Origin: Escherichia coli
GTDB lineage: Bacteria; Pseudomonadota; Gammaproteobacteria; Enterobacterales; Enterobacteriaceae
Assembly (NCBI RefSeq): GCF_003334255.1
Contig: NZ_QOWU01000090.1
Reading direction: 5' to 3' (one strand)
Length of the DNA: 9,233 nt
The position numbers and the translations under genes are program-made. Positions 77-9,233 of this stretch are shown here, piece after piece. Below the pieces are notes generated by a model that was not told where the DNA came from, searched no databases, and saw only the letters and a list, made by a program, of their open reading frames with translations. The number at the start of each line of letters is the position of its first letter. Position 1 is the first letter of the stretch.

Positions 77-96
77 GGGGGGAAGTCCCCCTTTTT
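77..96 (+). terminator. Rho-independent terminator closing a + strand unit lying left of the window
   Basis: G-run 77..82, loop AAGT, C-run 87..91 (5-bp all-GC stem), followed directly by TTTTT 92..96. Confidence 0.5.
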
Positions 97-106
97 AACG
101 TCATTT

Positions 107-154
107 TATGCAGGGAATGTGTAGTTCTACACAGATTCTATGCAGTATCGGTAT
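107..154. repeat. Compound repeat: TATGCAG (107..113), perfect 16-bp palindrome TGTGTAG-TT-CTACACA (118..133), TATGCAG (139..145), TATCGGTAT (146..154)
   Basis: Read directly from the sequence. Further same-orientation TATGCAG(G) copies at 219..225 and 469..475. A given 7-mer is expected less than once per strand in 9.2 kb. Confidence 0.7.
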
Positions 155-437
155 AGTCCCTTTTTATTCTAACTTATTGAAATATATAAAGAATCTGCAA
201 AGCCTCTTTTCAGGGAGCTATGCAGGGTGTTAGTCGTCCCTCTCCAGACACTACATATAGTGCTATATACAGGGCTATATAACGATATATAGATGTTTGG
301 TCACATGGTGTAACTATCAAGAAACTTAATAGTTTCCTATGTGAAAGTTATTTCTGAGGGTGGGTAAGTGCTCAGGAGATTTCATGAGGATAATTCTTAT
401 CCGAATCATCACGTAGAACACGCTTAAGCACAGATAC

Positions 438-461
438 AAAAAAGCCCCCATGAAGGAGGCT
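438..461 (-). terminator. Rho-independent terminator of the recombinase gene
   Basis: On the - strand: AGCCUCC-UUCAU-GGGGGCU (7 bp including one G.U) followed by UUUUUU (A-run 438..443 on +). The hairpin begins 25 nt after the stop codon at 487..489. Confidence 0.65.
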
Positions 462-486
462 ATGAATCTATGCAGGTGATGAGAAA

Positions 487-1053
487 TTATTCAGCTTTAA
501 TACGCTGTACAGTTGACTTGGCAACGTTGAATTGAGCGGCTACTTTAGCGATTGAACTACCAGCAGCAAGAGCAGCTTTAATACCTTCTCTGTCAACCGC
601 TTTACCGTTACCCCTTCCAACTACACGACCAGCAGCTTTAGCAGCTTCATAACCTTCTCTTTGACGCTCAAGCATCATTTTACGTTCAGCTTCAGCCACT
701 GCTGAAAAGATTGTGAGAATCATCTTAGACGTGGGGTTATCGTCACCAGTTATCAGACCTTCTTTGTGAAAGTGAACCTTGATACCTTTCTGTGAAAGTT
801 TATCCACCAGCGTTAATACATCCACGGTAGAGCGCCCTAAACGTGACAGGTCGTGTACATGGATAGTGTCACCTTCACGAACATAATCGAGCATAGCCTT
901 TAGTTGTGGACGGTCTGTATTCTTCCCAGATGCTTTATCAGTAAATACCTTATCCAGTACGACCCCTTCAAGTTGACGGTCTGTAATCTGCTGGATTGAT
1001 GAAACTCGAACATAACCAATGTTAGCCATAATATACTCATTTGCCTTACTCAT
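487..1053 (-). CDS. Small serine recombinase (resolvase/invertase family)
   Basis: 188-aa ORF. MANIGYVRVSSIQQ matches the catalytic-serine N-terminus of the family (compare Hin MATIGYIRVSTIDQ). Also DRPQL, LSRLGRS, an E-helix AEAERKMMLERQREG, and a C-terminal Gly/Arg arm plus HTH (IAKVAAQFNVAKSTVQRI). The family-typical start is the internal ATG at 1029 (M-A-N-I-G-Y); 1053 is the longest-ORF start. Confidence 0.9.
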   Translation of the reverse strand: MSKANEYIMANIGYVRVSSIQQITDRQLEGVVLDKVFTDKASGKNTDRPQLKAMLDYVREGDTIHVHDLSRLGRSTVDVLTLVDKLSQKGIKVHFHKEGLITGDDNPTSKMILTIFSAVAEAERKMMLERQREGYEAAKAAGRVVGRGNGKAVDREGIKAALAAGSSIAKVAAQFNVAKSTVQRIKAE

Positions 1054-1064
1054 TTGATGGATTG

Positions 1065-1094
1065 AGTATAACGTACCGATAAAGTGTTTTACAA
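1065..1094 (-). promoter_or_regulatory. Candidate sigma70 promoter of the recombinase gene
   Basis: - strand TTGTAA (1094..1089), 18 nt, TATACT (1070..1065). The predicted start near 1058 leaves only about 5 nt before ATG 1053, which favours ATG 1029 as the real start. Confidence 0.35.
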
Positions 1095-1156
1095 GGCTAA
1101 TCGGTATGGTTTTTACAGGGGGTTAGCTATACCTTTTTAGTATGCTATATCGGTAT
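1074..1156. repeat. ATCGGTAT motif cluster upstream of the recombinase gene (candidate res-like binding sites)
   Basis: TACCGATA 1074..1081 (inverted copy), ATCGGTAT 1100..1107, TATCGGTAT 1148..1156. The first two form the dyad TACCGAT-N19-ATCGGTA. A fourth copy lies at 146..154 on the other side of the gene. An 8-mer is expected about 0.3 times in this window. Confidence 0.55.
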
Positions 1157-1339
1157 GCCTAAGAGATGGAGATGCCTTTACAGCAACTCACATAGAAAGT
1201 CAATAGATATTTGGCTTTTTTGCAAAGGGGGTCACATAGCTGGTGTGACGGGTACTTAGCAGGTATAGACCTGTGATAGATATTTTCGAAGATTCGGGGA
1301 AGATGAGATTCAAAGAGGGCTAGTCATTTTTTATAAAAA

Positions 1340-1477
1340 TTTTCAGACTCTGAAAAGTTACTGTACAGATTTTATACAGATATCTTTAAAGTATCTGTAA
1401 AGACTTTTAAGATAAGAGATAGATATCCCAGAAAGGATATCCGTTTAGAAAACCTGTTAAGTATCTCTTAAAAGAGA
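1340..1477. promoter_or_regulatory. Cluster of four unrelated dyad symmetries in the recombinase/methyltransferase divergent intergenic region
   Basis: TTTTCAG-ACT-CTGAAAA 1340..1356; TACAGATA-N9-TATCTGTA 1375..1399; GATATCC-N6-GGATATC 1422..1441; TCTCTT-AA-AAGAGA 1464..1477. All arms are perfect. Confidence 0.5.
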
Positions 1478-1521
1478 GTAAACCTTGTCAATAGTGATTG
1501 CAATAAAAATTTTTATTTCTT

Positions 1522-2184
1522 ATGTCAATTGAGCATATTTTAATCGGGAAACATCATGGGGGTTCTGATTACTGGAGAACTCCATTTCTTATATTCCGCA
1601 ATTTGCACCGTGAGTTTAGTTTCAGTCTGGATGGTGCTGCAACTGAGCATGACACGCTGTTACCACGATTCACCAATGATATTCACAATCAGTCATGGGA
1701 TGGTGAACGGGTGTTCTGTAACCCACCATACAGCGACACTAAAACATTCCTCCTAAAAGCCGCTGAAGCGGATTTAGCGGTATTCCTGATACCGTACCGA
1801 CCCCACACCACATACTGGCTTAAGCACCTCTTCACAAACCCGCTTTGCCATGAAATCCGTATTCTTCATCGTGCAGTTAAATACCTTCCACCAGCAGGGC
1901 ATAACGGGCTTGCTATTAGGTCACCGTTTGCAAGTGCAATTGTCATCTTTAAAACTGAGCCACGCAGACATGAAATTACGCAGATGATTTGCTGTGCTGA
2001 TACATTGCTACCGTTAACCATCATTAACAGAGGAGGCTTAAGAGGAAGACCCACCATTTACCCACCTGAGACGCTCGACAGCTTCATAAAGCTATACAGG
2101 CAAGGAAAACCCATTAAGTGCATTGCAGATGCTCTCAGAATGCCTCTGAGCACGTCATACAGGATTGCGCAAAGGTTGAGCTAA
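1522..2184 (+). CDS. Phage Dam-type DNA N6-adenine methyltransferase with a C-terminal resolvase-type HTH domain
   Basis: 220-aa ORF. DYWRTP...FSLDGAA...W-x3-VFCNPPYSD follows the phage Dam family layout (PF05869-like), with catalytic NPPY at nt 1720..1731. From GRP (nt 2044) the last ~46 aa read as a Hin/resolvase-type DNA-binding domain (GRPTIY...IKCIADALRMPLSTSYRI). There is no SD before ATG 1522, so the start is uncertain. Confidence 0.8.
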   Translation: MSIEHILIGKHHGGSDYWRTPFLIFRNLHREFSFSLDGAATEHDTLLPRFTNDIHNQSWDGERVFCNPPYSDTKTFLLKAAEADLAVFLIPYRPHTTYWLKHLFTNPLCHEIRILHRAVKYLPPAGHNGLAIRSPFASAIVIFKTEPRRHEITQMICCADTLLPLTIINRGGLRGRPTIYPPETLDSFIKLYRQGKPIKCIADALRMPLSTSYRIAQRLS

Positions 2185-2288
2185 AATTCTCATAAATATG
2201 GCCATTTACAAGACAGGTGATTTAGATATTAAGAAGTATCCCTGTGAACAATAAATGACCAATCAGTAATTATTCTGTGAAATAATTG

Positions 2289-2317
2289 TTGCAATCTATA
2301 ATCACACATGATATAGT
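2289..2317 (+). promoter_or_regulatory. Sigma70 promoter of the replication operon
   Basis: TTGCAA (2289..2294), 17 nt, TATAGT (2312..2317). It gives a leader of about 225 nt before the rep-like ATG at 2551. Confidence 0.55.
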
Positions 2318-2378
2318 TTCATAGTGGGCTGATAAAAAAGTTCATGTCTTGAAGTGGTAACACTTGGGGAGGTGTCAG

Positions 2379-2414
2379 ATGATTGACGTCAACAAGACCT
2401 CTCATTCAGGGTAA
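2379..2414 (+). CDS. Possible 11-codon leader peptide (MIDVNKTSHSG) in the rep leader
   Basis: Strong SD GGGGAGG (2366..2372), 6-nt spacer, ATG 2379, stop TAA 2412..2414. No other support. Confidence 0.25.
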   Translation: MIDVNKTSHSG

Positions 2415-2499
2415 TTACCTCAGCGTTTTAATCATCGTACTGTTTCAGGCATGGACTTCTTTATCAGTCCATCAATCCCCCAGATATTTTAATCACACA

Positions 2500-2530
2500 G
2501 GCTAATCGGTTTTATCCGGTTGGCCTTTTC
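2500..2530 (+). terminator. Attenuator-like intrinsic terminator just upstream of the rep RBS
   Basis: GGCTAATCGG (2500..2509), loop TTTTAT, CCGGTTGGCC (2516..2525): 10 bp including two G.U pairs, then TTTT (2526..2529). It ends 7 nt before the SD GAGG 2537..2540. Confidence 0.45.
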
Positions 2531-2550
2531 ACGTATGAGGTAATTTATGA

Positions 2551-3489
2551 ATGTCTAAATATAACCCAAATCAGTTTTATAAATTTGATGTGCGAATCTC
2601 TCAGCTTTCAGAAGAAATTAACGCAGCAGCAAGATTAATTTATATGGTCATGGTTCATAGCTGTGATTTCTATGAAGAGAAGTACAAAGCATATTCACCA
2701 AGTATTGACCATCTAGCTTATATGGCTGGTGTTTCAAAGAGAACGGCAATCAGAGCTATTGAGACACTTGAGAAACACGGTTTAATTCAGGTGCAAAAGA
2801 ATCAGGGTCGTCAAAGCACTTATCGTGTATTCACACTGGATGATAAGCCGGAATTACTTGTAAGACCTACATCACAGGAAGTTGCAGCCTCAGTAAGACA
2901 AAATGACACCACTACCAGTGACAAAATGTCATCAGTACCAGTGACAAAATGTCATGGGGGTAGTGACAAAATGTCACCCGTGTTAGATAAGTTATTAGAT
3001 AAAACATTAGATAATAATATTATAGATAAGAGTAAAGATACTGAACTTGATGTTGGTATCAATGAAGATGATTTTCTTTCTTTGGATGAATTAAATGATT
3101 TTCTCTCTATGAATGAATCTGACCTTGATAGTGAAGCTACTAAAGAGACCTCTAAAACATCTGACTTAGAGGAAGATAAAATCTCTGATGTGAATGAAGT
3201 TAGTGACCAGCAAGATACACCTTGCCGCCTCGAATCAACTGATGATGAATTACCGGATGTTGACCTTGATGATGAAGAAGACCCTGAAGAGGAATTGAAA
3301 CGTGAACAGCGTAAAGCAGAAATTAAAGAAAGATTCAGAAAGGCAAAGCTAAAGAACAGGATTGATGAACTTGATGACTTTGATGATAGTGACGATGATT
3401 TTACTTTTACACCAAAAAAGAAAACTCACACCGAGCCAAAGAAAGAAAAAGTTAAAGTCAGACGTGTTTATGCTGGAGGAATGTTTTAA
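2551..3489 (+). CDS. Replication-initiator-like protein: N-terminal winged-HTH (HTH_36-like) and a long acidic C-terminal half
   Basis: 312-aa ORF. ARLIYMVMVHSCD...YSPSIDHLAYMAGVSKRTAIRAIETLEKHGLIQV...STYRV is the HTH pattern seen in phage/plasmid initiators. Iterons and an AT-rich tract lie inside the gene (2892..3029). SD GAGG lies 10 nt upstream. The gene is translationally coupled to the next ORF. Confidence 0.7.
   Translation: MSKYNPNQFYKFDVRISQLSEEINAAARLIYMVMVHSCDFYEEKYKAYSPSIDHLAYMAGVSKRTAIRAIETLEKHGLIQVQKNQGRQSTYRVFTLDDKPELLVRPTSQEVAASVRQNDTTTSDKMSSVPVTKCHGGSDKMSPVLDKLLDKTLDNNIIDKSKDTELDVGINEDDFLSLDELNDFLSMNESDLDSEATKETSKTSDLEEDKISDVNEVSDQQDTPCRLESTDDELPDVDLDDEEDPEEELKREQRKAEIKERFRKAKLKNRIDELDDFDDSDDDFTFTPKKKTHTEPKKEKVKVRRVYAGGMF
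2892..2976. repeat. Four phased iterons (candidate origin of replication inside the rep gene)
   Basis: AGTGACAAAATGTCA at 2917..2931, 2940..2954 and 2962..2976. Copies 1 and 2 are identical over 20 bp (TACCAGTGACAAAATGTCAT). A degenerate copy AGTAAGACAAAATGACA lies at 2892..2908. Spacing is 23/23/22 bp. Each copy contains the dyad TGACA-AAA-TGTCA. Confidence 0.75.
2983..3029. repeat. AT-rich tract with 12-bp-phased TTAGATAA repeats (candidate DNA-unwinding element)
   Basis: TTAGATAA at 2983..2990, 2995..3002 and 3007..3014, plus ATAGATAA at 3022..3029. It lies immediately 3' of the iterons and is encoded as LDKLLDKTLDNNIIDK. Confidence 0.55.
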
Positions 3490-3779
3490 TGAAAGAATAT
3501 AACGGTGAAAAACGATACAAAGATTATCTATTAAGGCGCTACAGCATTTCTCGTGAAGGTCATCTTCTGAAAGATACTCATGGGGAGGTTTACCGGATTC
3601 GACCGAAGAAGGAAGGAAAGAATTATTTCTTTTTTGATGGTGTGACAGATTTAAAGATTGACGCTTTGAGGTTTGCAGTGATGTATCATTTTGATGTCTG
3701 GGATTCAGTCCACCAGCTACGATTAAAAGACGGTGACCCCGGTAATCTGAAGGCCACCAATATCATCACAAAACGTTAG
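3489..3779 (+). CDS. Hypothetical 96-aa protein, weak resemblance to HNH_3/NUMOD4-type phage endonuclease scaffolds
   Basis: ATG overlaps the rep stop (TAATG). YSISREGHLLKD...GKNYFFFDG...H-x4-KDGDPGNLKATN loosely follows the Y-x-V-S-x-x-G ... H-x-DGD-x-x-N-x-x-x-NL pattern, but the key Asn/His positions look degenerate. Confidence 0.5.
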   Translation: MKEYNGEKRYKDYLLRRYSISREGHLLKDTHGEVYRIRPKKEGKNYFFFDGVTDLKIDALRFAVMYHFDVWDSVHQLRLKDGDPGNLKATNIITKR

Positions 3780-3961
3780 TTTGTTTTACCATCATCAATC
3801 GTAATTGTGATTTCATATTTGAAAAGCTTAATGCTGAAATTGAATCGTGTACTTTTGGCGATAATCATTTTTAAAAGCTGATACACCAGAAGCACCAGAA
3901 ACACAAAGCAACCTAAGCTTGCGAATCTGTGAGATTCAGCAATTGTTTCAAGAAAGCCCAT
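3776..3961 (-). CDS. Small single-pass membrane protein (61 aa)
   Basis: Good SD AAGGGG 5 nt before the ATG (3961..3959). Hydrophobic segment LGCFVFLVLLVYQLL. It has its own promoter (4012..4040). It converges on, and overlaps by 4 nt, the 3489..3779 gene. Confidence 0.5.
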   Translation of the reverse strand: MGFLETIAESHRFASLGCFVFLVLLVYQLLKMIIAKSTRFNFSIKLFKYEITITIDDGKTN

Positions 3962-4011
3962 TAATTCCCCTTATTTATCAAAGGGAATGACCTGTATCAG
4001 CCCCTATAACC

Positions 4012-4040
4012 ATAATATCATGTAAATGAGATGTTGACAA
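4012..4040 (-). promoter_or_regulatory. Sigma70 promoter for the 61-aa membrane protein
   Basis: - strand TTGTCA (4040..4035), 17 nt, TATTAT (4017..4012). Its -35 overlaps the -35 of the divergent + promoter. Confidence 0.55.
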
Positions 4041-4062
4041 TATGTTAAATAAATGTTAAGAT
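4034..4062 (+). promoter_or_regulatory. Near-consensus sigma70 promoter of the 4099..5374 operon
   Basis: TTGACA (4034..4039), 17 nt, TAAGAT (4057..4062). It is overlaid by three tandem 11-bp repeats: ATGTTGACAAT, ATGTTAAATAA, ATGTTAAGATT (4031..4063). Confidence 0.65.
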
Positions 4063-4098
4063 TGTAGTATGAGTAAGAGATTTAAGGAGATTTTTACA

Positions 4099-4389
4099 AT
4101 GACTCACACAGTTACGCGCCTTTTGCCAGAGGCATTTGAACGACTGGCAGCAATCAAAGCCAAATATCCCGATATGAAGCACACAGCGCTTGTTGCAGAG
4201 GTTTTAAAAGAGCCGGTAGACTTGACCCCTTTCGATAACGTTAAGGGCGTTGCAGAGGGTTCTAAGGCCATCAGAATCACAACGGGCCAACTGGAACTAC
4301 TCAAAGCACAGTCCGCAGTAGCAGGTTGCTCAATGATTCAGGTCTTAAGCGCAAAGGTTCATCAATTAGCGGATAAGCTGGGGGTTTAA
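4099..4389 (+). CDS. Small DNA-binding-like protein with two tandem ribbon-helix-helix-like segments
   Basis: SD AAGGAG (4083..4088), 10 nt, ATG 4099. The ORF track starts at ATG 4069, which coincides with the predicted transcription start. TVTRLLPEAFERLAAIKAKYPDMKHTALVAEVL and AIRITTGQLELLKAQSAVAGCSMIQVLSAKV each fit a strand-helix-helix pattern. This was judged by eye only. Confidence 0.6.
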   Translation: MTHTVTRLLPEAFERLAAIKAKYPDMKHTALVAEVLKEPVDLTPFDNVKGVAEGSKAIRITTGQLELLKAQSAVAGCSMIQVLSAKVHQLADKLGV

Positions 4390-4814
4390 TGCTATGTACA
4401 TTTGATTATCATGCGTTTTATCGACATAGAGGTCATCTTGTCCGTGAGAATAACGGAACATGGAAAGATTTAACTCGTAATGCTGAACCCTTCACACACC
4501 AGCAATTAAAATCCCGCTTCTCCAGATGGAAGAATGCACCAGCAGATACTGGTGATTTTGAGATTATCCATACCTTCGATTATGCCTCAGAAGATGACCT
4601 TCACGATGCAATTAAGCTGATTGAAGACTTCAATACCTCAGAAAATGTGGATGGTGACAAATATAAATCCCGTGGTAACCGCTATAACCGTGATGATATC
4701 ACTCAGGCCATAAATGCTGGTCAATCTCAGCGATACATTACAGAAAAATATGGTATTTCACGGAGACAGTATTTCTACGTTAAATCATTGATTAATAAAG
4801 ACAATTCAAAATAA
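4389..4814 (+). CDS. Hypothetical 141-aa protein with a C-terminal resolvase-type HTH
   Basis: ATG overlaps the upstream stop (TAATG). The C-terminus DDITQAINAGQSQRYITEKYGISRRQYFYV resembles HTH_7. The N-terminal ~100 aa are unrecognised. Confidence 0.6.
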   Translation: MLCTFDYHAFYRHRGHLVRENNGTWKDLTRNAEPFTHQQLKSRFSRWKNAPADTGDFEIIHTFDYASEDDLHDAIKLIEDFNTSENVDGDKYKSRGNRYNRDDITQAINAGQSQRYITEKYGISRRQYFYVKSLINKDNSK

Positions 4815-4820
4815 CCATCT

Positions 4821-4920
4821 CAGTAACGGTAGAATGCACTTTACAGGCAGAGTTGCACCTTAATTTGATAAATTACCTTACCAGCCAGTGCAACTCCCTC
4901 TGTAACCCGCATGGTTACTG
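4821..4920. other. 100-nt imperfect long hairpin / cruciform-capable element
   Basis: Nested arms: CAGTAAC 4821..4827 / GTTACTG 4914..4920; ATGC 4834..4837 / GCAT 4909..4912; TTACAG 4841..4846 / CTGTAA 4900..4905; GAGTTGCAC 4850..4858 / GTGCAACTC 4888..4896. That is 26 bp in total, with a 29-nt AT-rich apical loop. Confidence 0.6.
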
Positions 4921-4973
4921 GCCTCAGAATGGCTATTTTAAGAGGTCTGAGATGTGTTTTAGAGGAATTTAAA

Positions 4974-5297
4974 ATGAGCAATTACGAATTACAGATTTTC
5001 GTTGATAACGACACCGCTATGATGATTCAGGCTTTCAGTGATTCCGGTGTATCAATTGATTTTGACAGGCTGTTAAAGCTGATGGCTGATAATGCAGAAA
5101 ACATCTCTGACTTTATTCAGTCGGTGGAGTTTAACGAGCCTCGAATGATGCTACCAATTACCGACTCAAACATGAAAAGATTGGTTATCGAGCAAACGAA
5201 CAAACACAGTATTTCCCCAGAGCAATTTTTGAAAGGTGCTGTGACAATCCTGCACAGCGATAATATTCTGGTGACGGATTCTATGAGGGTTCACTAA
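4974..5297 (+). CDS. Hypothetical 107-aa protein
   Basis: SD GAGGA (4963..4967), 6 nt, ATG 4974. The longer ORF start at 4911 lies inside the hairpin element and has no RBS. The C-terminal MLPITDSNMKRLVIEQTNKHSISPEQFLKGAV is weakly RHH-like. Confidence 0.6.
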   Translation: MSNYELQIFVDNDTAMMIQAFSDSGVSIDFDRLLKLMADNAENISDFIQSVEFNEPRMMLPITDSNMKRLVIEQTNKHSISPEQFLKGAVTILHSDNILVTDSMRVH

Positions 5298-5374
5298 TGG
5301 GATTGATAATTGCTTGGACAGCTTTAGGTTTATTTGTTGGTTGCTGGGTGGGCAACACAGTAAATAAGAATTGA
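5297..5374 (+). CDS. Possible 25-aa hydrophobic peptide (MGLIIAWTALGLFVGCWVGNTVNKN)
   Basis: ATG overlaps the stop of the preceding gene (TAATG, the same coupling as two other junctions in this window). One clean transmembrane-length hydrophobic stretch with a basic/polar tail. It is too short for statistical support. Confidence 0.3.
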   Translation: MGLIIAWTALGLFVGCWVGNTVNKN

Positions 5375-5406
5375 TGTTACCAATCTGTTAAAAAGCTGTT
5401 GACAAA
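5374..5406. promoter_or_regulatory. Three tandem 11-bp TGTT repeats ending on the -35 box
   Basis: ATGTTACCAAT 5374..5384, CTGTTAAAAAG 5385..5395, CTGTTGACAAA 5396..5406. The same unit and phase occur at 4031..4063. Confidence 0.55.
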
Positions 5407-5427
5407 TAACCTTAAGCATGGCATAAT
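5399..5427 (+). promoter_or_regulatory. Near-consensus sigma70 promoter with no adjacent conventional gene
   Basis: TTGACA (5399..5404), 17 nt, CATAAT (5422..5427). A second -10-like TATATA follows at 5430..5435. Confidence 0.65.
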
Positions 5428-5433
5428 TGTATA

Positions 5434-5652
5434 TATGAGGATAGTCTTCTATCCGAAGTCTATAGGAAGAGCAATTTTTCCTAAAATCATATTTTCAATA
5501 ATCCGATGGATGGATATTCTGAGTTGGAAAGGTGCAATGCTTTTCGTCATGGCCTTTCAGTTTAGTCTGAGAGGTCATCTCAAAAAGTGCTTAATCATTC
5601 ATTATTGAACCCTTACAGCTTTGCCCTAACTCATGATTAGGGCGTTTTCTTT
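5434..5652 (+). ncRNA. Candidate ~0.2-kb structured short transcript (promoter to first terminator); alternative reading is a leaderless 57-codon ORF at 5435..5608
   Basis: It is bounded by the promoter above and terminator T1. Hairpins: GGATAG-TCTT-CTATCC 5439..5454; TAGGAA-N9-TTCCTA 5463..5483; GAAAGG/CCTTTC 5527..5558; TGAGA-GGTCA-TCTCA 5568..5582. No SD-preceded ORF is present. An ATG at 5435 sits at the predicted +1 and opens MRIVFYPKSIGRAIFPK... (rich in ATA/AGA codons). Confidence 0.35.
5623..5652 (+). terminator. Intrinsic terminator T1
   Basis: GCCCTAA (5623..5629), 7-nt loop, TTAGGGC (5637..5643), then GTTTTCTTT. Confidence 0.65.
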
Positions 5653-5721
5653 AAGAGTTTTGAAACAGAGCTTTTAAAGAAAGTTTTCCTGAAACTTCGT
5701 TAACGTTATAAGCAAACCTTC

Positions 5722-5757
5722 AAAGCCCTTCACAGATTATGTTTAGGGCTTTTCTTA
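5722..5757 (+). terminator. Intrinsic terminator T2 (3' half nearly duplicates T1)
   Basis: AAAGCCCT (5722..5729), 15-nt loop, AGGGCTTT (5745..5752), within the T-rich run TTTTCTT (5750..5756). Confidence 0.55.
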
Positions 5758-5842
5758 ATAGAGCATCTTTAATAAATCGTTAAGTCATCTTCTAAGTGTA
5801 TTGGCGTTGAAGGTGCTCTATTAAGAAATAACCACACTTAGA
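5754..5842 (+). promoter_or_regulatory. Leader with two interleaved inverted repeats reaching the RBS of the 5854 gene
   Basis: CTTAATAGAGCA 5754..5765 / TGCTCTATTAAG 5814..5825 (12 bp perfect). TCTAAGTGT 5791..5799 / ACACTTAGA 5834..5842 (9 bp perfect); its 3' arm overlaps the start of the SD GAGGA 5841..5845. Confidence 0.45.
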
Positions 5843-5853
5843 GGAAAAAAATA

Positions 5854-6564
5854 ATGACAAACGATATTTACATTAATGGCAAAGTGATTGATAGCTTCGG
5901 TGACTGGTCACCACAGACTGAACATCCAGCTATCGCTATTCAGCGCAAAGAGCACGATGCGAGAATTGCACTTGAGCAATCGCTAAAGATGACACCAAAG
6001 GAAATTACCTTTGTGGCTCCTGAACCTCAAGAGATGCCCGATATTGGCAAAACTGAAGCATTATTTAATCTTGAGCGCGAATATTACCCACAGTTAAAAG
6101 AACAGCGCCTTAGATTAGATGACGCTTACAGCAAAGTTACCTTGATGCAATCAGCTATTGAGCCGTCAGAATTTGAGATTCAGGATGAATTGTCACAGAA
6201 ACCATTTGTCTATTACCAATACGAAGACAATGATGGTTTTGGTACTTTTCCAGAAAACATCACAGGCGTGATTAGTAGTCTTCCTGATGGATATCGAATT
6301 GTGAAGATGGTTAAAGCTTCAAGAGGTGCTGGTCAGTTTATTTACATGACCAATAAGAGCGATGAAGAACTCCGTGAAATTGCCAGACAGAACATCTTGG
6401 CATCACGTAACAAGCAACTTGAAAATGTTAAGTTGTATCTCTCAAGAGAGCTTCAGGCTATGAAAGAGCTTGTTAGTGAATATGAGTCGCAGAAGAAGAT
6501 TGCTATGCAAGCCGATATTGAGCAGCTTACGAAGATTTCTCAGAAGTATAGCAAAGCGATTTAA
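5854..6564 (+). CDS. Hypothetical 236-aa protein with a coiled-coil-like C-terminus
   Basis: SD GAGGA followed by an 8-nt spacer before the ATG. Long ORF with even, gene-like composition. The C-terminal ~70 aa are K/E/Q/L-rich (NKQLENVKLYLSRELQAMKELVSEYESQKKIAMQADIEQL). No family was recognised. Confidence 0.7.
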   Translation: MTNDIYINGKVIDSFGDWSPQTEHPAIAIQRKEHDARIALEQSLKMTPKEITFVAPEPQEMPDIGKTEALFNLEREYYPQLKEQRLRLDDAYSKVTLMQSAIEPSEFEIQDELSQKPFVYYQYEDNDGFGTFPENITGVISSLPDGYRIVKMVKASRGAGQFIYMTNKSDEELREIARQNILASRNKQLENVKLYLSRELQAMKELVSEYESQKKIAMQADIEQLTKISQKYSKAI

Positions 6565-6580
6565 TTTAAGTGAGGTGAGA

Positions 6581-6796
6581 ATGATTGATTTGCAACAGCG
6601 TTATGAAACTATTAAGTCGGCTTGTGAAAACTTAAAGTTACAAACCAAGCCAGCCTTAAGAATTAAAACCAAACATCAAATTATCACCTCACACAAACCA
6701 AAAACACGCAAGATTCCAAAGTGGTGTATTGACCGTATTCCTTCTGATGCTCAAATCATAGGTGAAACGGAATTACATTATCTTGTCCGACATTAA
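6581..6796 (+). CDS. Hypothetical 71-aa basic protein
   Basis: SD GAGGTGAG directly upstream of ATG 6581. The ORF track extends to 6470, but that extension overlaps the previous gene and lacks an RBS. Confidence 0.5.
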   Translation: MIDLQQRYETIKSACENLKLQTKPALRIKTKHQIITSHKPKTRKIPKWCIDRIPSDAQIIGETELHYLVRH

Positions 6797-6823
6797 AAAA
6801 GAATTGGTTGGGTAAAAATCAAC

Positions 6824-6866
6824 GGGAGAGATTATCGAGTGATATCGGTAGTTTCTCCCTTTTTTG
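6824..6866 (+). terminator. Intrinsic terminator after the 5854..6796 gene pair
   Basis: GGGAGA (6824..6829) pairs with TCTCCC (6854..6859). A short inner CGA/TCG pairing is possible. A TTTTTT run follows at 6860..6865. Confidence 0.5.
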
Positions 6867-6872
6867 TATGTG

Positions 6873-6915
6873 TGCTACGTGAAATCTTCTGAACAGATAT
6901 ACCCACCAAAAATTA
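6873..6915 (+). repeat. 43-bp direct repeat, copy A (promoter-like module upstream of the tape-measure gene)
   Basis: TGCTACGTGAAATCTTCTGAACAGATATACCCACCAAAAATTA. It is 36/43 identical to copy B at 9112..9154, and 25/27 over the first 27 nt. It contains TGAACA-17-TTATTT. GCTACGT 6874..6880 is inverted at ACGTAGC 6922..6928. Confidence 0.7.
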
Positions 6916-6956
6916 TTTTTTACGTAGCTCACGCTTAAAGAGGTGAAAAAATATGA

Positions 6957-9023
6957 ATGGCACAATTTAAAGTTGATGATTTTCTGATTGAGCTAGGTTT
7001 TAACTCTCAGAGGGTTTTAAAAGGTCTGGAAAAAGCCGAGAAACAAACGATGCAGGTAGCATCACGAATTGAGAAGCGATTGAATAAAGCTTTTAAAGTT
7101 AACCCTACGCCTTTAAATGATTCTCTCAAGGTCATGGAAAGAAATGTCGATAAAACTGTTTCCAAGATTGAGCAGCGTCTTAAAAACACTAAAGCGTTTA
7201 AGATTAAAACGGAAATTGAGGATACTTTAAAGCCACTTAGACAACCGAGACAGCCACGAATTAGCGGAAGCAGAGCAATTACAGCAGCGCATAGCGTGAA
7301 TATGAGCAAGCTTCGTGACTTTAATCCTATGCTTGAGAAGTATTTTAAAAGCCAGTATTACAGCTTAAGCAGTAAATCCAAGACACTTGGAAACGAAGCT
7401 TTTAATCGTGAGTTAGCAAAATTAAATCAATCTCTTCGTGAAACACTTTCTAAGTTTAACAAGACCACCAGCAAAAATAATCACAGTGAAAATGCTTCGA
7501 ATGGTCTGGATGTATTAGCTACGAGTGCAATCAAAGCAGGTACAGCCATTTATAGTTTTCAGACAGCCTTAGAAGCTTACAGGCGGATTATGGAGGTTGG
7601 TCTGAAAAAAGAAGCATCACAACGAGCGGCACAATTCGTTTTAGGTGATGAAGGTGCTAAACGAGCTACAGAATTTGTTAAGAATCTTGCTGATAGTAGT
7701 GGTGTAGACCAGATTGAAACATTAAGCAGTTTTGCTAAGTTTTCCGCTGGTGCTGGTGATATGAATGCAGACCAGAAAGAATCCTTATTTTCTAATGTGA
7801 TTGGTACATCCAGATTAATGGGGCTAAGCACCGATGAAATTAACGGGATTTTAAAAGCTTTCGAGCAGATGGCATCTAAAGGAAAGATTCAGGCTGAAGA
7901 GCTACGCGGTCAATTAGGTGACAGAATGGCAGGTGCTTTTCAGTTATTTGCCAGAAGTCTTGGGATGACTACGGAAGAATTAGACAAGGCTATGAAAGAC
8001 GGTAAGGTTCTTTCTAAAGATGTTCTCCCTAAAGTATCCGCTGAAATGGGAAAGATGATTGATAAAGCGGGAGGATGGGAAAAGATTATTAACTCTACTC
8101 AGACGCAGTTAGGCCGCTTAAGTAATTCATGGAATAATAATTTGGCCTTAATGTTCGATGGTTCACAGGAAGGTTTAACAGACTTTACAAGGTCACTGAC
8201 TAATTTACTTAATTCACTGGGTGGTCAATCTAAAAATCTTGGTGAACATTTTGGCGACTTGATGAAAAGCATGTCAAACGGTATTGATGATTTAACCACG
8301 ATTAGCTACCGAGTGCAGGGATTCTTTGACAGAGTGACCCTTGCTTACAGAGAATTAAATGACACTCAAAAAGCTGTAGCTGATGGTATCGCAAATGGCC
8401 TGTTAAGTGCATTAAAGGGACTTGCTGGTATTGTCGCTGTAAGGTCTGGTATTGGTGCTGTAGGTGGTATCTGGAACTTAATTAGGGCTATTTCCACGCT
8501 TGGGAATGTAGCAAATACAGCAGCAGGAAGAATTAATTCACGTTCTGGTGGTGTTGAAAGTGGAAAAAGTAGGCTATCTGTAGCTGATGCAATTACCAGA
8601 GTAATGATTGTCGGTATGACAACTGATGTGATTAATGCCATTGTCAAACCGTTCTATGAACGTCAGATGAGTAAGTCAGATAATCCGATTGATAAAGTTG
8701 TAAGGTCAAAGGTGGAACCCACAGACCAGGCATTAACTGGTGACATGAACTCTTTAGCCGCTGTTTTATGGGCTATGGTTCATGGCAAATCAAAAGATGT
8801 TCCACAGTTTTCACCTGAAGCATTAAATAATCTAAAAGGTCGAGTGGAAACATTCACACAAGATTTAAAGGTTATCAAGCCGTCAGTAAATATTCAGCCT
8901 CAGACAATCAATATCACAACTCAGACGGTACTTGATGGAAAGGTTATTGATGAAAGAACCACATCGCATATTAATCGTATGCAGGAAGATACCTTGATTA
9001 GCTCAGCTTACCCAGAGGAATAA
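6957..9023 (+). CDS. Phage tail length tape-measure protein
   Basis: 688-aa ORF. The core ...LMGLSTDEINGILKAFEQMASKGKIQAEELRGQLGDRMAGAFQLFARSLGMTTEELDKAMKDGKVLSKDVLPKV... is the conserved tape-measure block (TIGR02675-like). The N-terminal third is K/E-rich and helical. Gly/Ala/Ile-rich hydrophobic segments (GIANGLLSALKGLAGIVAVRSGIGAVGGIW) are typical of the family. SD GAGGTG lies at 6940..6945. Confidence 0.88.
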   Translation: MAQFKVDDFLIELGFNSQRVLKGLEKAEKQTMQVASRIEKRLNKAFKVNPTPLNDSLKVMERNVDKTVSKIEQRLKNTKAFKIKTEIEDTLKPLRQPRQPRISGSRAITAAHSVNMSKLRDFNPMLEKYFKSQYYSLSSKSKTLGNEAFNRELAKLNQSLRETLSKFNKTTSKNNHSENASNGLDVLATSAIKAGTAIYSFQTALEAYRRIMEVGLKKEASQRAAQFVLGDEGAKRATEFVKNLADSSGVDQIETLSSFAKFSAGAGDMNADQKESLFSNVIGTSRLMGLSTDEINGILKAFEQMASKGKIQAEELRGQLGDRMAGAFQLFARSLGMTTEELDKAMKDGKVLSKDVLPKVSAEMGKMIDKAGGWEKIINSTQTQLGRLSNSWNNNLALMFDGSQEGLTDFTRSLTNLLNSLGGQSKNLGEHFGDLMKSMSNGIDDLTTISYRVQGFFDRVTLAYRELNDTQKAVADGIANGLLSALKGLAGIVAVRSGIGAVGGIWNLIRAISTLGNVANTAAGRINSRSGGVESGKSRLSVADAITRVMIVGMTTDVINAIVKPFYERQMSKSDNPIDKVVRSKVEPTDQALTGDMNSLAAVLWAMVHGKSKDVPQFSPEALNNLKGRVETFTQDLKVIKPSVNIQPQTINITTQTVLDGKVIDERTTSHINRMQEDTLISSAYPEE

Positions 9024-9111
9024 ACAATGTTAGAGCTACTAATATTTATTGCCACACATGGCAATCTATTAATCTTTATCTAGTATGACGATTCAACTAT
9101 GAATAGTCGAA

Positions 9112-9154
9112 TGCTACGTGATTTCTTCTGAACAGATACCAACATCAAAAATTA
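9112..9154 (+). repeat. 43-bp direct repeat, copy B
   Basis: TGCTACGTGATTTCTTCTGAACAGATACCAACATCAAAAATTA. It is followed after 2 bp by the IS end. Confidence 0.7.
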
Positions 9155-9156
9155 GA

Positions 9157-9233
9157 TGAACCGCCCCGGGTTTCCTGGAGAGTGTTTTATCTGTGAACTC
9201 AGGCTGCCAGATCATTGTTTCCGATGGAAGCAT
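9157..9233 (-). mobile_element. Right end (IRR plus end of orfB) of an IS629/IS1203-like IS3-family insertion sequence, continuing beyond the window
   Basis: From 9157 the sequence reads TGAACCGCCCCGGGTTTCCTGGAGAGTGTTTTATCTGTGAACTCAGGCTGCCAGATCATTGTTTCCGATGGAAGCAT. From memory this is the reverse complement of the IS629-type right end (TG...CA termini, IR TGAACCGCCCCGGG). G+C jumps abruptly relative to the flanking DNA. Confidence 0.85.
9199..9233 (-). CDS. IS3-family transposase OrfB, C-terminal fragment (truncated by the window edge)
   Basis: The reverse-strand frame reads ...ASIGNNDLAA then stop (tca 9199..9201 on +), matching my recollection of the IS629 OrfB C-terminus (...YYASIGNDDLAA). 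Confidence 0.7.
   Translation of the reverse strand, partial: ASIGNNDLAA

Follow-up and report, generated by a model that had tools for sequence, protein, structure and literature searches.

The res site used by the Tn3 and gamma-delta resolvases spans 114 bp and comprises three dimer-binding sites, of which site I is the crossover site, and half-sites of the Tn3 type follow the pattern TGTCYNNTA. Other small serine resolvases, represented by the RK2/RP4 ParA-res, Sin-resH and beta recombinase-six systems, resolve multimers of plasmids and phages. The invertases Hin, Gin, Cin and Pin belong to the same superfamily and act on 26-bp hix/gix sites that share an AAACC-NN-GGTTT core. We analyzed a stretch of 9,233 nucleotides from Escherichia coli (contig NZ_QOWU01000090.1 of assembly GCF_003334255.1; the whole stretch is called the window below) whose minus strand carries the gene for a small serine recombinase (487-1029). 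A first-pass annotation, made from the letters alone, had described four classes of short repeats around this gene and offered them as substrates for resolution, for excision of a recombinase cassette or for inversion. All four motif classes are present in the sequence, and the observation is partly confirmed. Judged from sequence comparison, the repeats at about 1034-1156 probably constitute the res site of a Tn3/gamma-delta-like resolvase encoded by this gene, an ordinary resolvase/res module.

The gene encodes a resolvase-like protein of 180 amino acids in which Pfam recognizes a Resolvase domain (4.5e-37, residues 12-143) and a C-terminal HTH_7 domain that scores above the cut-off. Translation likely starts at the ATG at 1029 and not at 1053, because the gene annotated by RefSeq in relatives is 543 nt long and the homologous proteins open with the corresponding MAxxxYxRVS. 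The best relatives of solved structure are the Tn3 resolvase (9.3e-31, 110 bits) and the gamma-delta resolvase (1.4e-30), followed by Gin (1.9e-24, 89.5 bits) and Sin (4.3e-19), and the alignment to the Tn3 and gamma-delta resolvases spans the full length. Mutation of Y6, R8, S10, D36, R68 or R71 abolishes the activity of Tn3 resolvase (PMC2794168), and all six residues are identical in the aligned recombinase. On the minus strand, a sigma-70-like promoter (1065-1094) consists of a -35 hexamer TTGTAA (1094-1089), an 18-nt spacer and a -10 hexamer TATACT (1070-1065), and a terminator scan placed an intrinsic terminator of the gene (AGCCTCCTTCATGGGGGCT-TTTTTT) at 443-461. A scan of IMG/VR with the recombinase returned only distant partial relatives (46-54%) and was uninformative.

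Three unequal dyads lie in the 130 bp upstream of the start codon. The one farthest from the gene, presumed to be the crossover site I, is a 28-bp dyad found by dyad scan (ATACCTTT-N12-ATCGGTAT, 1129-1156) with a central AT at 1142-1143; in the orientation of the gene it reads ATACCGAT-ATAGC-AT-ACTAA-AAAGGTAT. Site II, detected by dyad scan and motif count, follows at a distance of 21 bp as a 35-bp dyad (GTACCGAT-N19-ATCGGTAT, 1073-1107), which is ATACCGAT-N19-ATCGGTAC in gene orientation. Beginning 3 bp past site II, a tentative site III of 22-23 bp (TACTCA-N10-TGAGTA, 1047-1069; 7/8 arms in the dyad scan) has degenerate half-sites, and an extra half-site-like sequence, ATACTCAT, occupies 1034-1041. 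The -35 and -10 hexamers of the promoter fall inside sites II and III. Each island carries a single res.

Motif counts agree with this picture. ATCGGTA occurs five times in the window (at 147, 1074 on the minus strand, 1100, 1149 and 6844) versus 0.58 expected, a number reached in 0 of 200 shuffles, and three of the copies fall in 1074-1155. The recurrence described by the first-pass annotation is confirmed, but its statement that four such motifs all lie within 160 bp of the gene ends does not hold for the copy at 147-154, which is 333 bp from the stop codon. The copy at 6844 was considered as a further site and rejected; its position is the loop of a terminator hairpin, and chance probably accounts for it.

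The main evidence that the array is the cognate site of the recombinase comes from its conservation. Relatives of the locus are given labels such as L001 where they need to be told apart. In nine E. coli type-A relatives the site II half-sites are unchanged and those of site I are kept, barring one T-to-A change in a site I half-site of L012 and L014. A Citrobacter relative whose recombinase is 95% identical (L019) also keeps the half-sites, with G as the first base of one site I half-site and the site II half-sites at 2923 and 2950. In homologues of only 52-55% identity (L022 from Yokenella, L023 and L024), we found a 28-bp dyad, GTAGCGAT-TAAGC-AT-CCTTA-ATCGCTAC, with the same AGC-AT center, as well as a second dyad of 31 bp, GTAGCGAT-N15-ATCGCTAC, that is the equivalent of site II. 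The half-site itself has changed from ATACCGAT to GTAGCGAT: the first base differs and position 4 is switched from C to G, and the latter change is mirrored in all four half-sites of these homologues. They also retain, within site II, the GCCTTG(T/A) stretch that holds the -35 hexamer, their promoter being TTGATT-N17-TATAAT. A concerted change of half-sites with preserved geometry is the pattern expected of protein-binding sites. The earlier suggestion of a res-subsite-like layout over the promoter is therefore supported by co-varying half-sites in distant homologues, and these enzymes would offer a clean natural example of half-site specificity switching (ATACCGAT versus GTAGCGAT) between related recombinases. 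The first-pass annotation had named a lack of conservation next to orthologous recombinases as evidence against its motifs; conservation holds for the res array and fails for the left 16-bp repeat and the 26-bp dyad discussed below. Near the Yokenella-type genes, no co-varied lone site was found on the downstream side.

These data suggest how the module may work. Dimers of the recombinase would bind the three unequal dyads through the outer 8-bp motif (ATACCGAT/ATCGGTAT), and a staggered cut would be introduced at the palindromic central AT of site I. Since the promoter hexamers are located within the array, binding would also repress the recombinase gene. Once the island is excised and replicating, the directly repeated res copies of a dimer or multimer would be recombined to yield monomers, a role suggested by the presence of one res per island together with a replication-initiator-like gene of the island's own.

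Several points weigh against reading the array as a res of this type. Site III is weaker than sites I and II, and the Yokenella-type homologues show two direct half-sites at its position. The dyads measure 28, 35 and 23 bp here and 28 and 31 bp in the homologues, versus 28, 34 and 25 bp in Tn3. The equivalent of D67 is Ser (LSRLGR), likewise in L022 (ISRLAR), and departs from the DRLGR motif. R2, R32, K54 and E56 are the R-interface residues that build the Tn3 synaptosome (PMC9943657). Their counterparts are A, K, Y and R, so that three are not kept and one is changed conservatively, and any synaptosome must consequently be built differently. The recombinase can thus be regarded, on the basis of its sequence, as an enzyme that may work in the Tn3 manner via other contacts rather than as a strict member of the Tn3 subgroup. 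One relative (L002) has a slot of 421 bp (8225-8645) without an annotated recombinase gene at the corresponding place, which indicates that the module is dispensable. Finally, the role in multimer resolution is drawn from genomic context only, as is the free replicating form of the island.

The slot behaves as an exchangeable unit. Among relatives, the gene together with its array (about 467-1169) is replaced exactly by either of two other small serine recombinases, and the three types found in the slot are 30-44% identical to one another. The breakpoints map to about 466-490 and 1157-1170 in comparison with type C relatives, and to 350 and 1194-1206 in comparison with L001 and L002. In L001 the slot is filled by another small serine recombinase, encoded on the opposite strand (8229-8971), and in L016-L018 by a third type (2853-3590 in L016). 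Immediately before the start codon, each of the two has a dyad cluster of its own, built on TGAGAC half-sites in the former and on GTCTATAG half-sites in the latter. In L013-L015 and L019, one or two extra open reading frames of about 220-260 amino acids are located between the conserved block to the left and the recombinase.

Could the array be an operator and nothing else? In that case it would purely serve autorepression of a recombinase that is catalytically weak or dead owing to the Ser in place of D67, and no recombination would take place. The position of the promoter hexamers fits this idea, as does the finding that Ser occupies the D67 position throughout the clade: D67A and D67N mutants of Tn3 resolvase lose resolution in vivo. 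However, the same mutants keep substantial cleavage and recombination in vitro, and the D67 side chain was still judged non-essential (PMC2794168). All six residues of the essential class, the S10 nucleophile included, are retained in the recombinase. Moreover, the 28-bp dyad with its central AT lies outside the promoter and is nevertheless conserved in the 52-55% identical homologues, which is more than repression alone would need. We therefore consider an operator without recombination unlikely. Far less credit is due to the notion that all the short repeats are random matches in AT-rich non-coding DNA, which we regard as highly improbable. It is true that the repeat scan returned many two-copy families of like strength and that, taken one by one, the 16-bp pair and a lone 7-bp hairpin are near chance level. 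Yet no shuffle reached the observed ATCGGTA count, and only 1 of 500 dinucleotide shuffles of the 410-bp non-coding segment at 77-486 contained four copies of any 7-mer, as seen here for TATGCAG, so that the latter repeat is statistically real. A co-varying architecture in distant homologues cannot be produced by chance either. Chance is thereby refuted for the res array and for TATGCAG, and is a viable explanation for the 16-bp pair and the 26-bp dyad, the two features on which the remaining alternatives depend.

The 16-bp direct repeats are indeed present as first described, 14/16 identical and 1002 bp apart: the right copy (TATGCTATATCGGTAT, 1141-1156) is the center plus the distal half-site of site I, and the left copy (TATGCAGTATCGGTAT, 139-154, plus strand) resembles it. 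If both were crossover sites (centers 140-141 and 1142-1143), the recombinase could delete or circularize a segment of about 1 kb containing its own gene. Such cassette excision draws on the direct orientation and near identity of the copies, on the possibility to read 127-154 as a 28-mer akin to site I (CTACACAGATTCT-AT-GCAGTATCGGTAT) that shares its center and has one good half-site, and on the variability of the recombinase region among relatives. We nonetheless rate it as very unlikely. Within a shuffled 1.6 kb, 0.37 pairs of 16-mers matching in at least 14 positions are expected, so that the pair is not significant by itself; three were observed, the other two being unrelated. The left half-site at 147-154 is not maintained: it is mutated, with an altered CGGT core, in 4 of 10 examined relatives that carry this recombinase and an intact res, as ATTGATAT in L010 (TTGATAT; also in L001), ATCGATAT in L011 (TCGATAT), ATCAGTAC in L015 (TCAGTAC) and ATCCACAC in L019 (TCCACAC). 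The block around it is equally conserved where the recombinase is of another type (L001, L016-L018) or absent (L002), and the variable cassette is bounded at 283/350/466/490 and 1170/1194/1206, not at the repeats (140, 1142). A synthetic deletion-junction query, in which 127-141 was joined to 1144 onward (predicted junction CTACACAGATTCTAT followed by GCTATATCGG), was searched against 5,426 complete E. coli genomes, and among the 25 best-covered of the 331 matching genomes no alignment started before query position 13. According to PMC9943657 and PMC2602789, wild-type resolvases of the Tn3 type also require a full res, accessory sites included, on both partners. The resemblance of the left copy to site I is best read as a chance match or a relic within a block that appears to be conserved for another reason. 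Least probable of all is a Hin/Gin-type invertase that would use the 26-bp imperfect dyad GGGAATGTGTAG-TT-CTACACAGATTC as crossover site together with a partner outside the window. The 12+2+12 geometry that had been pointed out is correct, including seven perfect inner pairs (TGTGTAG/CTACACA, 118-133) and a non-palindromic center, although the dyad lies at 113-138 rather than 112-137; in addition, PHROG places the protein in a family that bears the label 'DNA invertase'. Against this, the protein scores higher with resolvases than with Gin, reaches only 70.7 bits in the NCBIfam Mpi invertase model versus a cut-off of 272, and has a motif of its own (ATCGGTAT) that is unrelated to the dyad arms, and the dyad does not contain the core shared by hix and gix sites. 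Counting the one inside the dyad, 1-1600 holds five independent perfect 7-bp hairpins versus an expectation of 0.85. The left arm GGGAATGTGTAG is confined to the window, L004, L013 and L016, which share the flank 3' of the L004-type large serine recombinase gene, and is replaced by GTATCTAAGCAG-like sequence in the other 11 of 15 relatives. In L004 the right arm reads TCCCACAGAATC, with four substitutions that break three of the seven inner pairs. With 8 mismatches allowed, no second copy of the dyad turned up in either orientation, whether in the window or in the stretches from L004, L001 and L002, each of which holds a whole island, and a search with half-arms gave nothing convincing. The proposal of a hix-like inversion site thus finds no support, and the same applies to the excision of the recombinase cassette. 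Features that resemble substrates for inversion or cassette excision lack conservation and do not merit further work in that capacity; we return to the resolvase/res module as the preferred reading.

What, then, is the 26-bp dyad? From the alignments it appears to be not a conserved palindrome but a non-conserved junction between a variable left arm and the conserved core of the island, with the terminator of a large serine recombinase gene on its other side. In the 11 relatives with a different left arm, its position is taken by one of three phased direct repeats, and the left arm therefore looks like a diverged direct-repeat copy. We also considered the dyad as attL or attP of the large serine recombinase, as the homology of L001 and L002 starts at 123-127. 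This was rejected because the empty K-12 sites put the junctions about 95 bp further left (7903/7904 in L001, 7907/7908 in L002) and because, in L004 as in the window, the gene of the large recombinase is situated left of the dyad.

A non-coding block at 127-350 is conserved across all island variants, with 76-94% identity to the four relatives measured. Near-invariant stretches in this block include GTTAGTC.TCCCTCTC and CTATATACAGG..TATATAAC, and a 7-bp hairpin lies at 275-292; there is no Rfam match, no phage match and no conserved open reading frame in it. Likewise, non-coding 104-486 gave no match to phages, the distant mode included. The four TATGCAG copies reported at 107, 139, 219 and 469 are all there on one strand, and a further copy is found at 8978. 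The copy at 139 is kept universally, that at 219 in about half of the relatives, that at 107 only in the four window-type relatives, and that at 469 is not maintained; it is missing even from L016, a relative that has this region in common with the window. The core CACAGATTCTATGCAGTAT (130-148, plus strand), which contains copy 139, is invariant at 17 of 19 positions in all 15 relatives (alignment columns C31, C33-A36 and T38-T49). Most relatives show helically phased direct repeats, CTATGCAAT, TCTAWGCAR and TCTATGCAG, whose offsets relative to the invariant TATGCAG are about -52, -21 and 0, the phased copies reading TATGCAA, TAWGCAG and TATGCAG. These patterns suggest that the TATGCAG core may be bound by a protein of the island or of a helper and may act in regulation or packaging.

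The window as a whole is an island interrupted by insertion sequences. Its left end (1-76) is the terminal part of IS421 (IS4/IS186-like), ending in ...GCGCTTATG, as indicated by E. coli matches, numbering in the thousands, that bear an IS421 transposase annotation; the identity falls off after about position 79-103. Its right end (9158-9233) is an IS629-type terminal inverted repeat (TGAACCGCCCCGGG...). Between the two (77-9157) lies most of an island of about 11.5 kb that is of the L004 type. On the plus strand, the terminator scan found an intrinsic terminator, GGGGGGAAGTCCCCC-TTTTT, at 77-96, which in intact relatives comes after the stop codon of the gene for the large serine recombinase; the identical sequence is present 18 bp past this stop codon in L004 and L013. 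Since 77-126 matches L004 sequence 3' of the large recombinase stop codon plus terminator, IS421 has inserted just downstream of that gene. IS629 cuts the island between the tape measure gene and the baseplate gene. With IS421 ending at the GGGGGGAAGTCCCCC terminator and the IS629 repeat at the right end, the island is severed from its large serine recombinase and baseplate genes.

Relatives of this island sit at five or more places in the E. coli chromosome: at yciI/tonB, inside yecE, at lafU/dinB, adjoining ymdF/rutG and adjoining mdtG. Roughly 10% of complete E. coli genomes (525 of 5,426) contain a match to positions 104-1300 of the window. The empty K-12 sites, used for comparison, delimited the island to 7904-19432 in L001, 7908-19020 in L002 and 12342-23808 in L004, with 13, 7 and 8 bp common to the left and right junctions and the empty sites. 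In L001 and L002 the large-recombinase module occupies the right end (minus strand), in L004 and L013 the left end (plus strand); three large serine recombinases that were compared are only 29-33% identical. Besides the small serine recombinase, the island encodes a Dam-like methyltransferase with a C-terminal HTH_7 domain, an HTH_36 replication-initiator-like protein, a tape measure protein and several further proteins without family match. In intact relatives these are followed by a baseplate protein and the large serine recombinase of about 510 amino acids. No transposase is annotated or found within the islands, the unrelated IS421 and IS629 being confined to the window ends. PADLOC detected no defence system in the window, its sole match being an orphan methyltransferase for the Dam-like gene, and Rfam recognized no RNA family anywhere in it.

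The tape measure protein (6957-9023) aligns over its full length with tape measure proteins of Felix O1-like virulent myoviruses at 28-29% identity. Tail genes are limited to tape measure and baseplate, and head or terminase genes are absent from the island, which suggests a satellite-like or tail-interfering element. A more far-reaching idea, which we put forward tentatively and consider rather doubtful, is that the window represents an apparently undescribed family of E. coli islands acting like a phage satellite. Such an element would require the resolvase and res slot to monomerize its replicated DNA before packaging or segregation, and the phased TATGCAG-type repeats (130-148 and upstream) would be its packaging or regulatory site. 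In the literature that we searched there was no description of a satellite that combines tape measure and baseplate proteins with a large serine recombinase, nor of an island at yciI/tonB. With respect to novelty, the resolvase/res module adds little, being one more serine resolvase with a recognizable three-part site. The island family, common in E. coli and with integration and resolvase modules that are both interchangeable, is the more interesting lead.

Some further features of the island deserve mention. The Dam-family N6-adenine methyltransferase (1522-2184) carries its resolvase-type HTH_7 domain at residues 175-215, an unusual fusion that could target the enzyme or have a role as regulator. 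An intergenic motif, (G/C)CTACGTGA(A/T)(A/T)TCTTCTGAACAGATA, is located upstream of the tape measure gene (6868-6938) and a second time ahead of the baseplate gene position (9112-9154), and a partial copy, CCTA(T/C)GTGAAAGTTATTTCTGA, is seen at 336-362 at the right edge of the conserved left block. This motif may be a shared, possibly late, promoter or an activator site. Between res and the Dam-like gene, conserved non-coding DNA (1160-1520) contains many small palindromes and repeats, among them three TACAGAT copies at 1364-1398 and hairpins at 1340-1356, 1422-1441 and 1502-1517. A direct match of 14/16 joins 1387-1402 to 187-202. The region may be an operator or origin region.

How does the module compare with the described systems? 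With Hin, Gin, Cin and Pin the recombinase shares the superfamily, and the dyad at 113-138 shares the 12-2-12 geometry of hix/gix sites. In contrast to these systems, there is no inverted pair of sites, the dyad is neither conserved nor related to the motif of the recombinase, and the score with Gin is lower. The likeness to the Tn3 and gamma-delta resolvases is closer: they are the best-scoring solved relatives, have the same two-domain architecture, and their essential catalytic residues are kept. Their res is paralleled by the array described here, with unequal dyads directly upstream of the gene, the 28-bp dyad with central AT distal, a longer one next and a short one nearest to the start, and with a promoter inside the array, implying autorepression. 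Unlike in Tn3 and gamma-delta, R2, K54 and E56 are not conserved and D67 is replaced by Ser, and the half-site is ATACCGAT and not of the TGTCYNNTA type. The host element differs as well: it is a chromosomal island whose integration is due to a large serine recombinase, and it has no Tn3-family transposase and hence no cointegrate to resolve. Similarity to Sin is weaker (4.3e-19) than to Tn3 resolvase (9.3e-31), and no IHF/HU site was identified. The replicon is an integrated island with a presumed free replicating form, which sets it apart from those served by ParA-res, Sin-resH and beta-six. In other respects the module resembles these three systems: a stand-alone resolvase gene lies next to a multi-subsite res on a non-transposon replicon, multimers are presumably converted to monomers, and accessory layouts vary from system to system, just as they do between the clades compared here.

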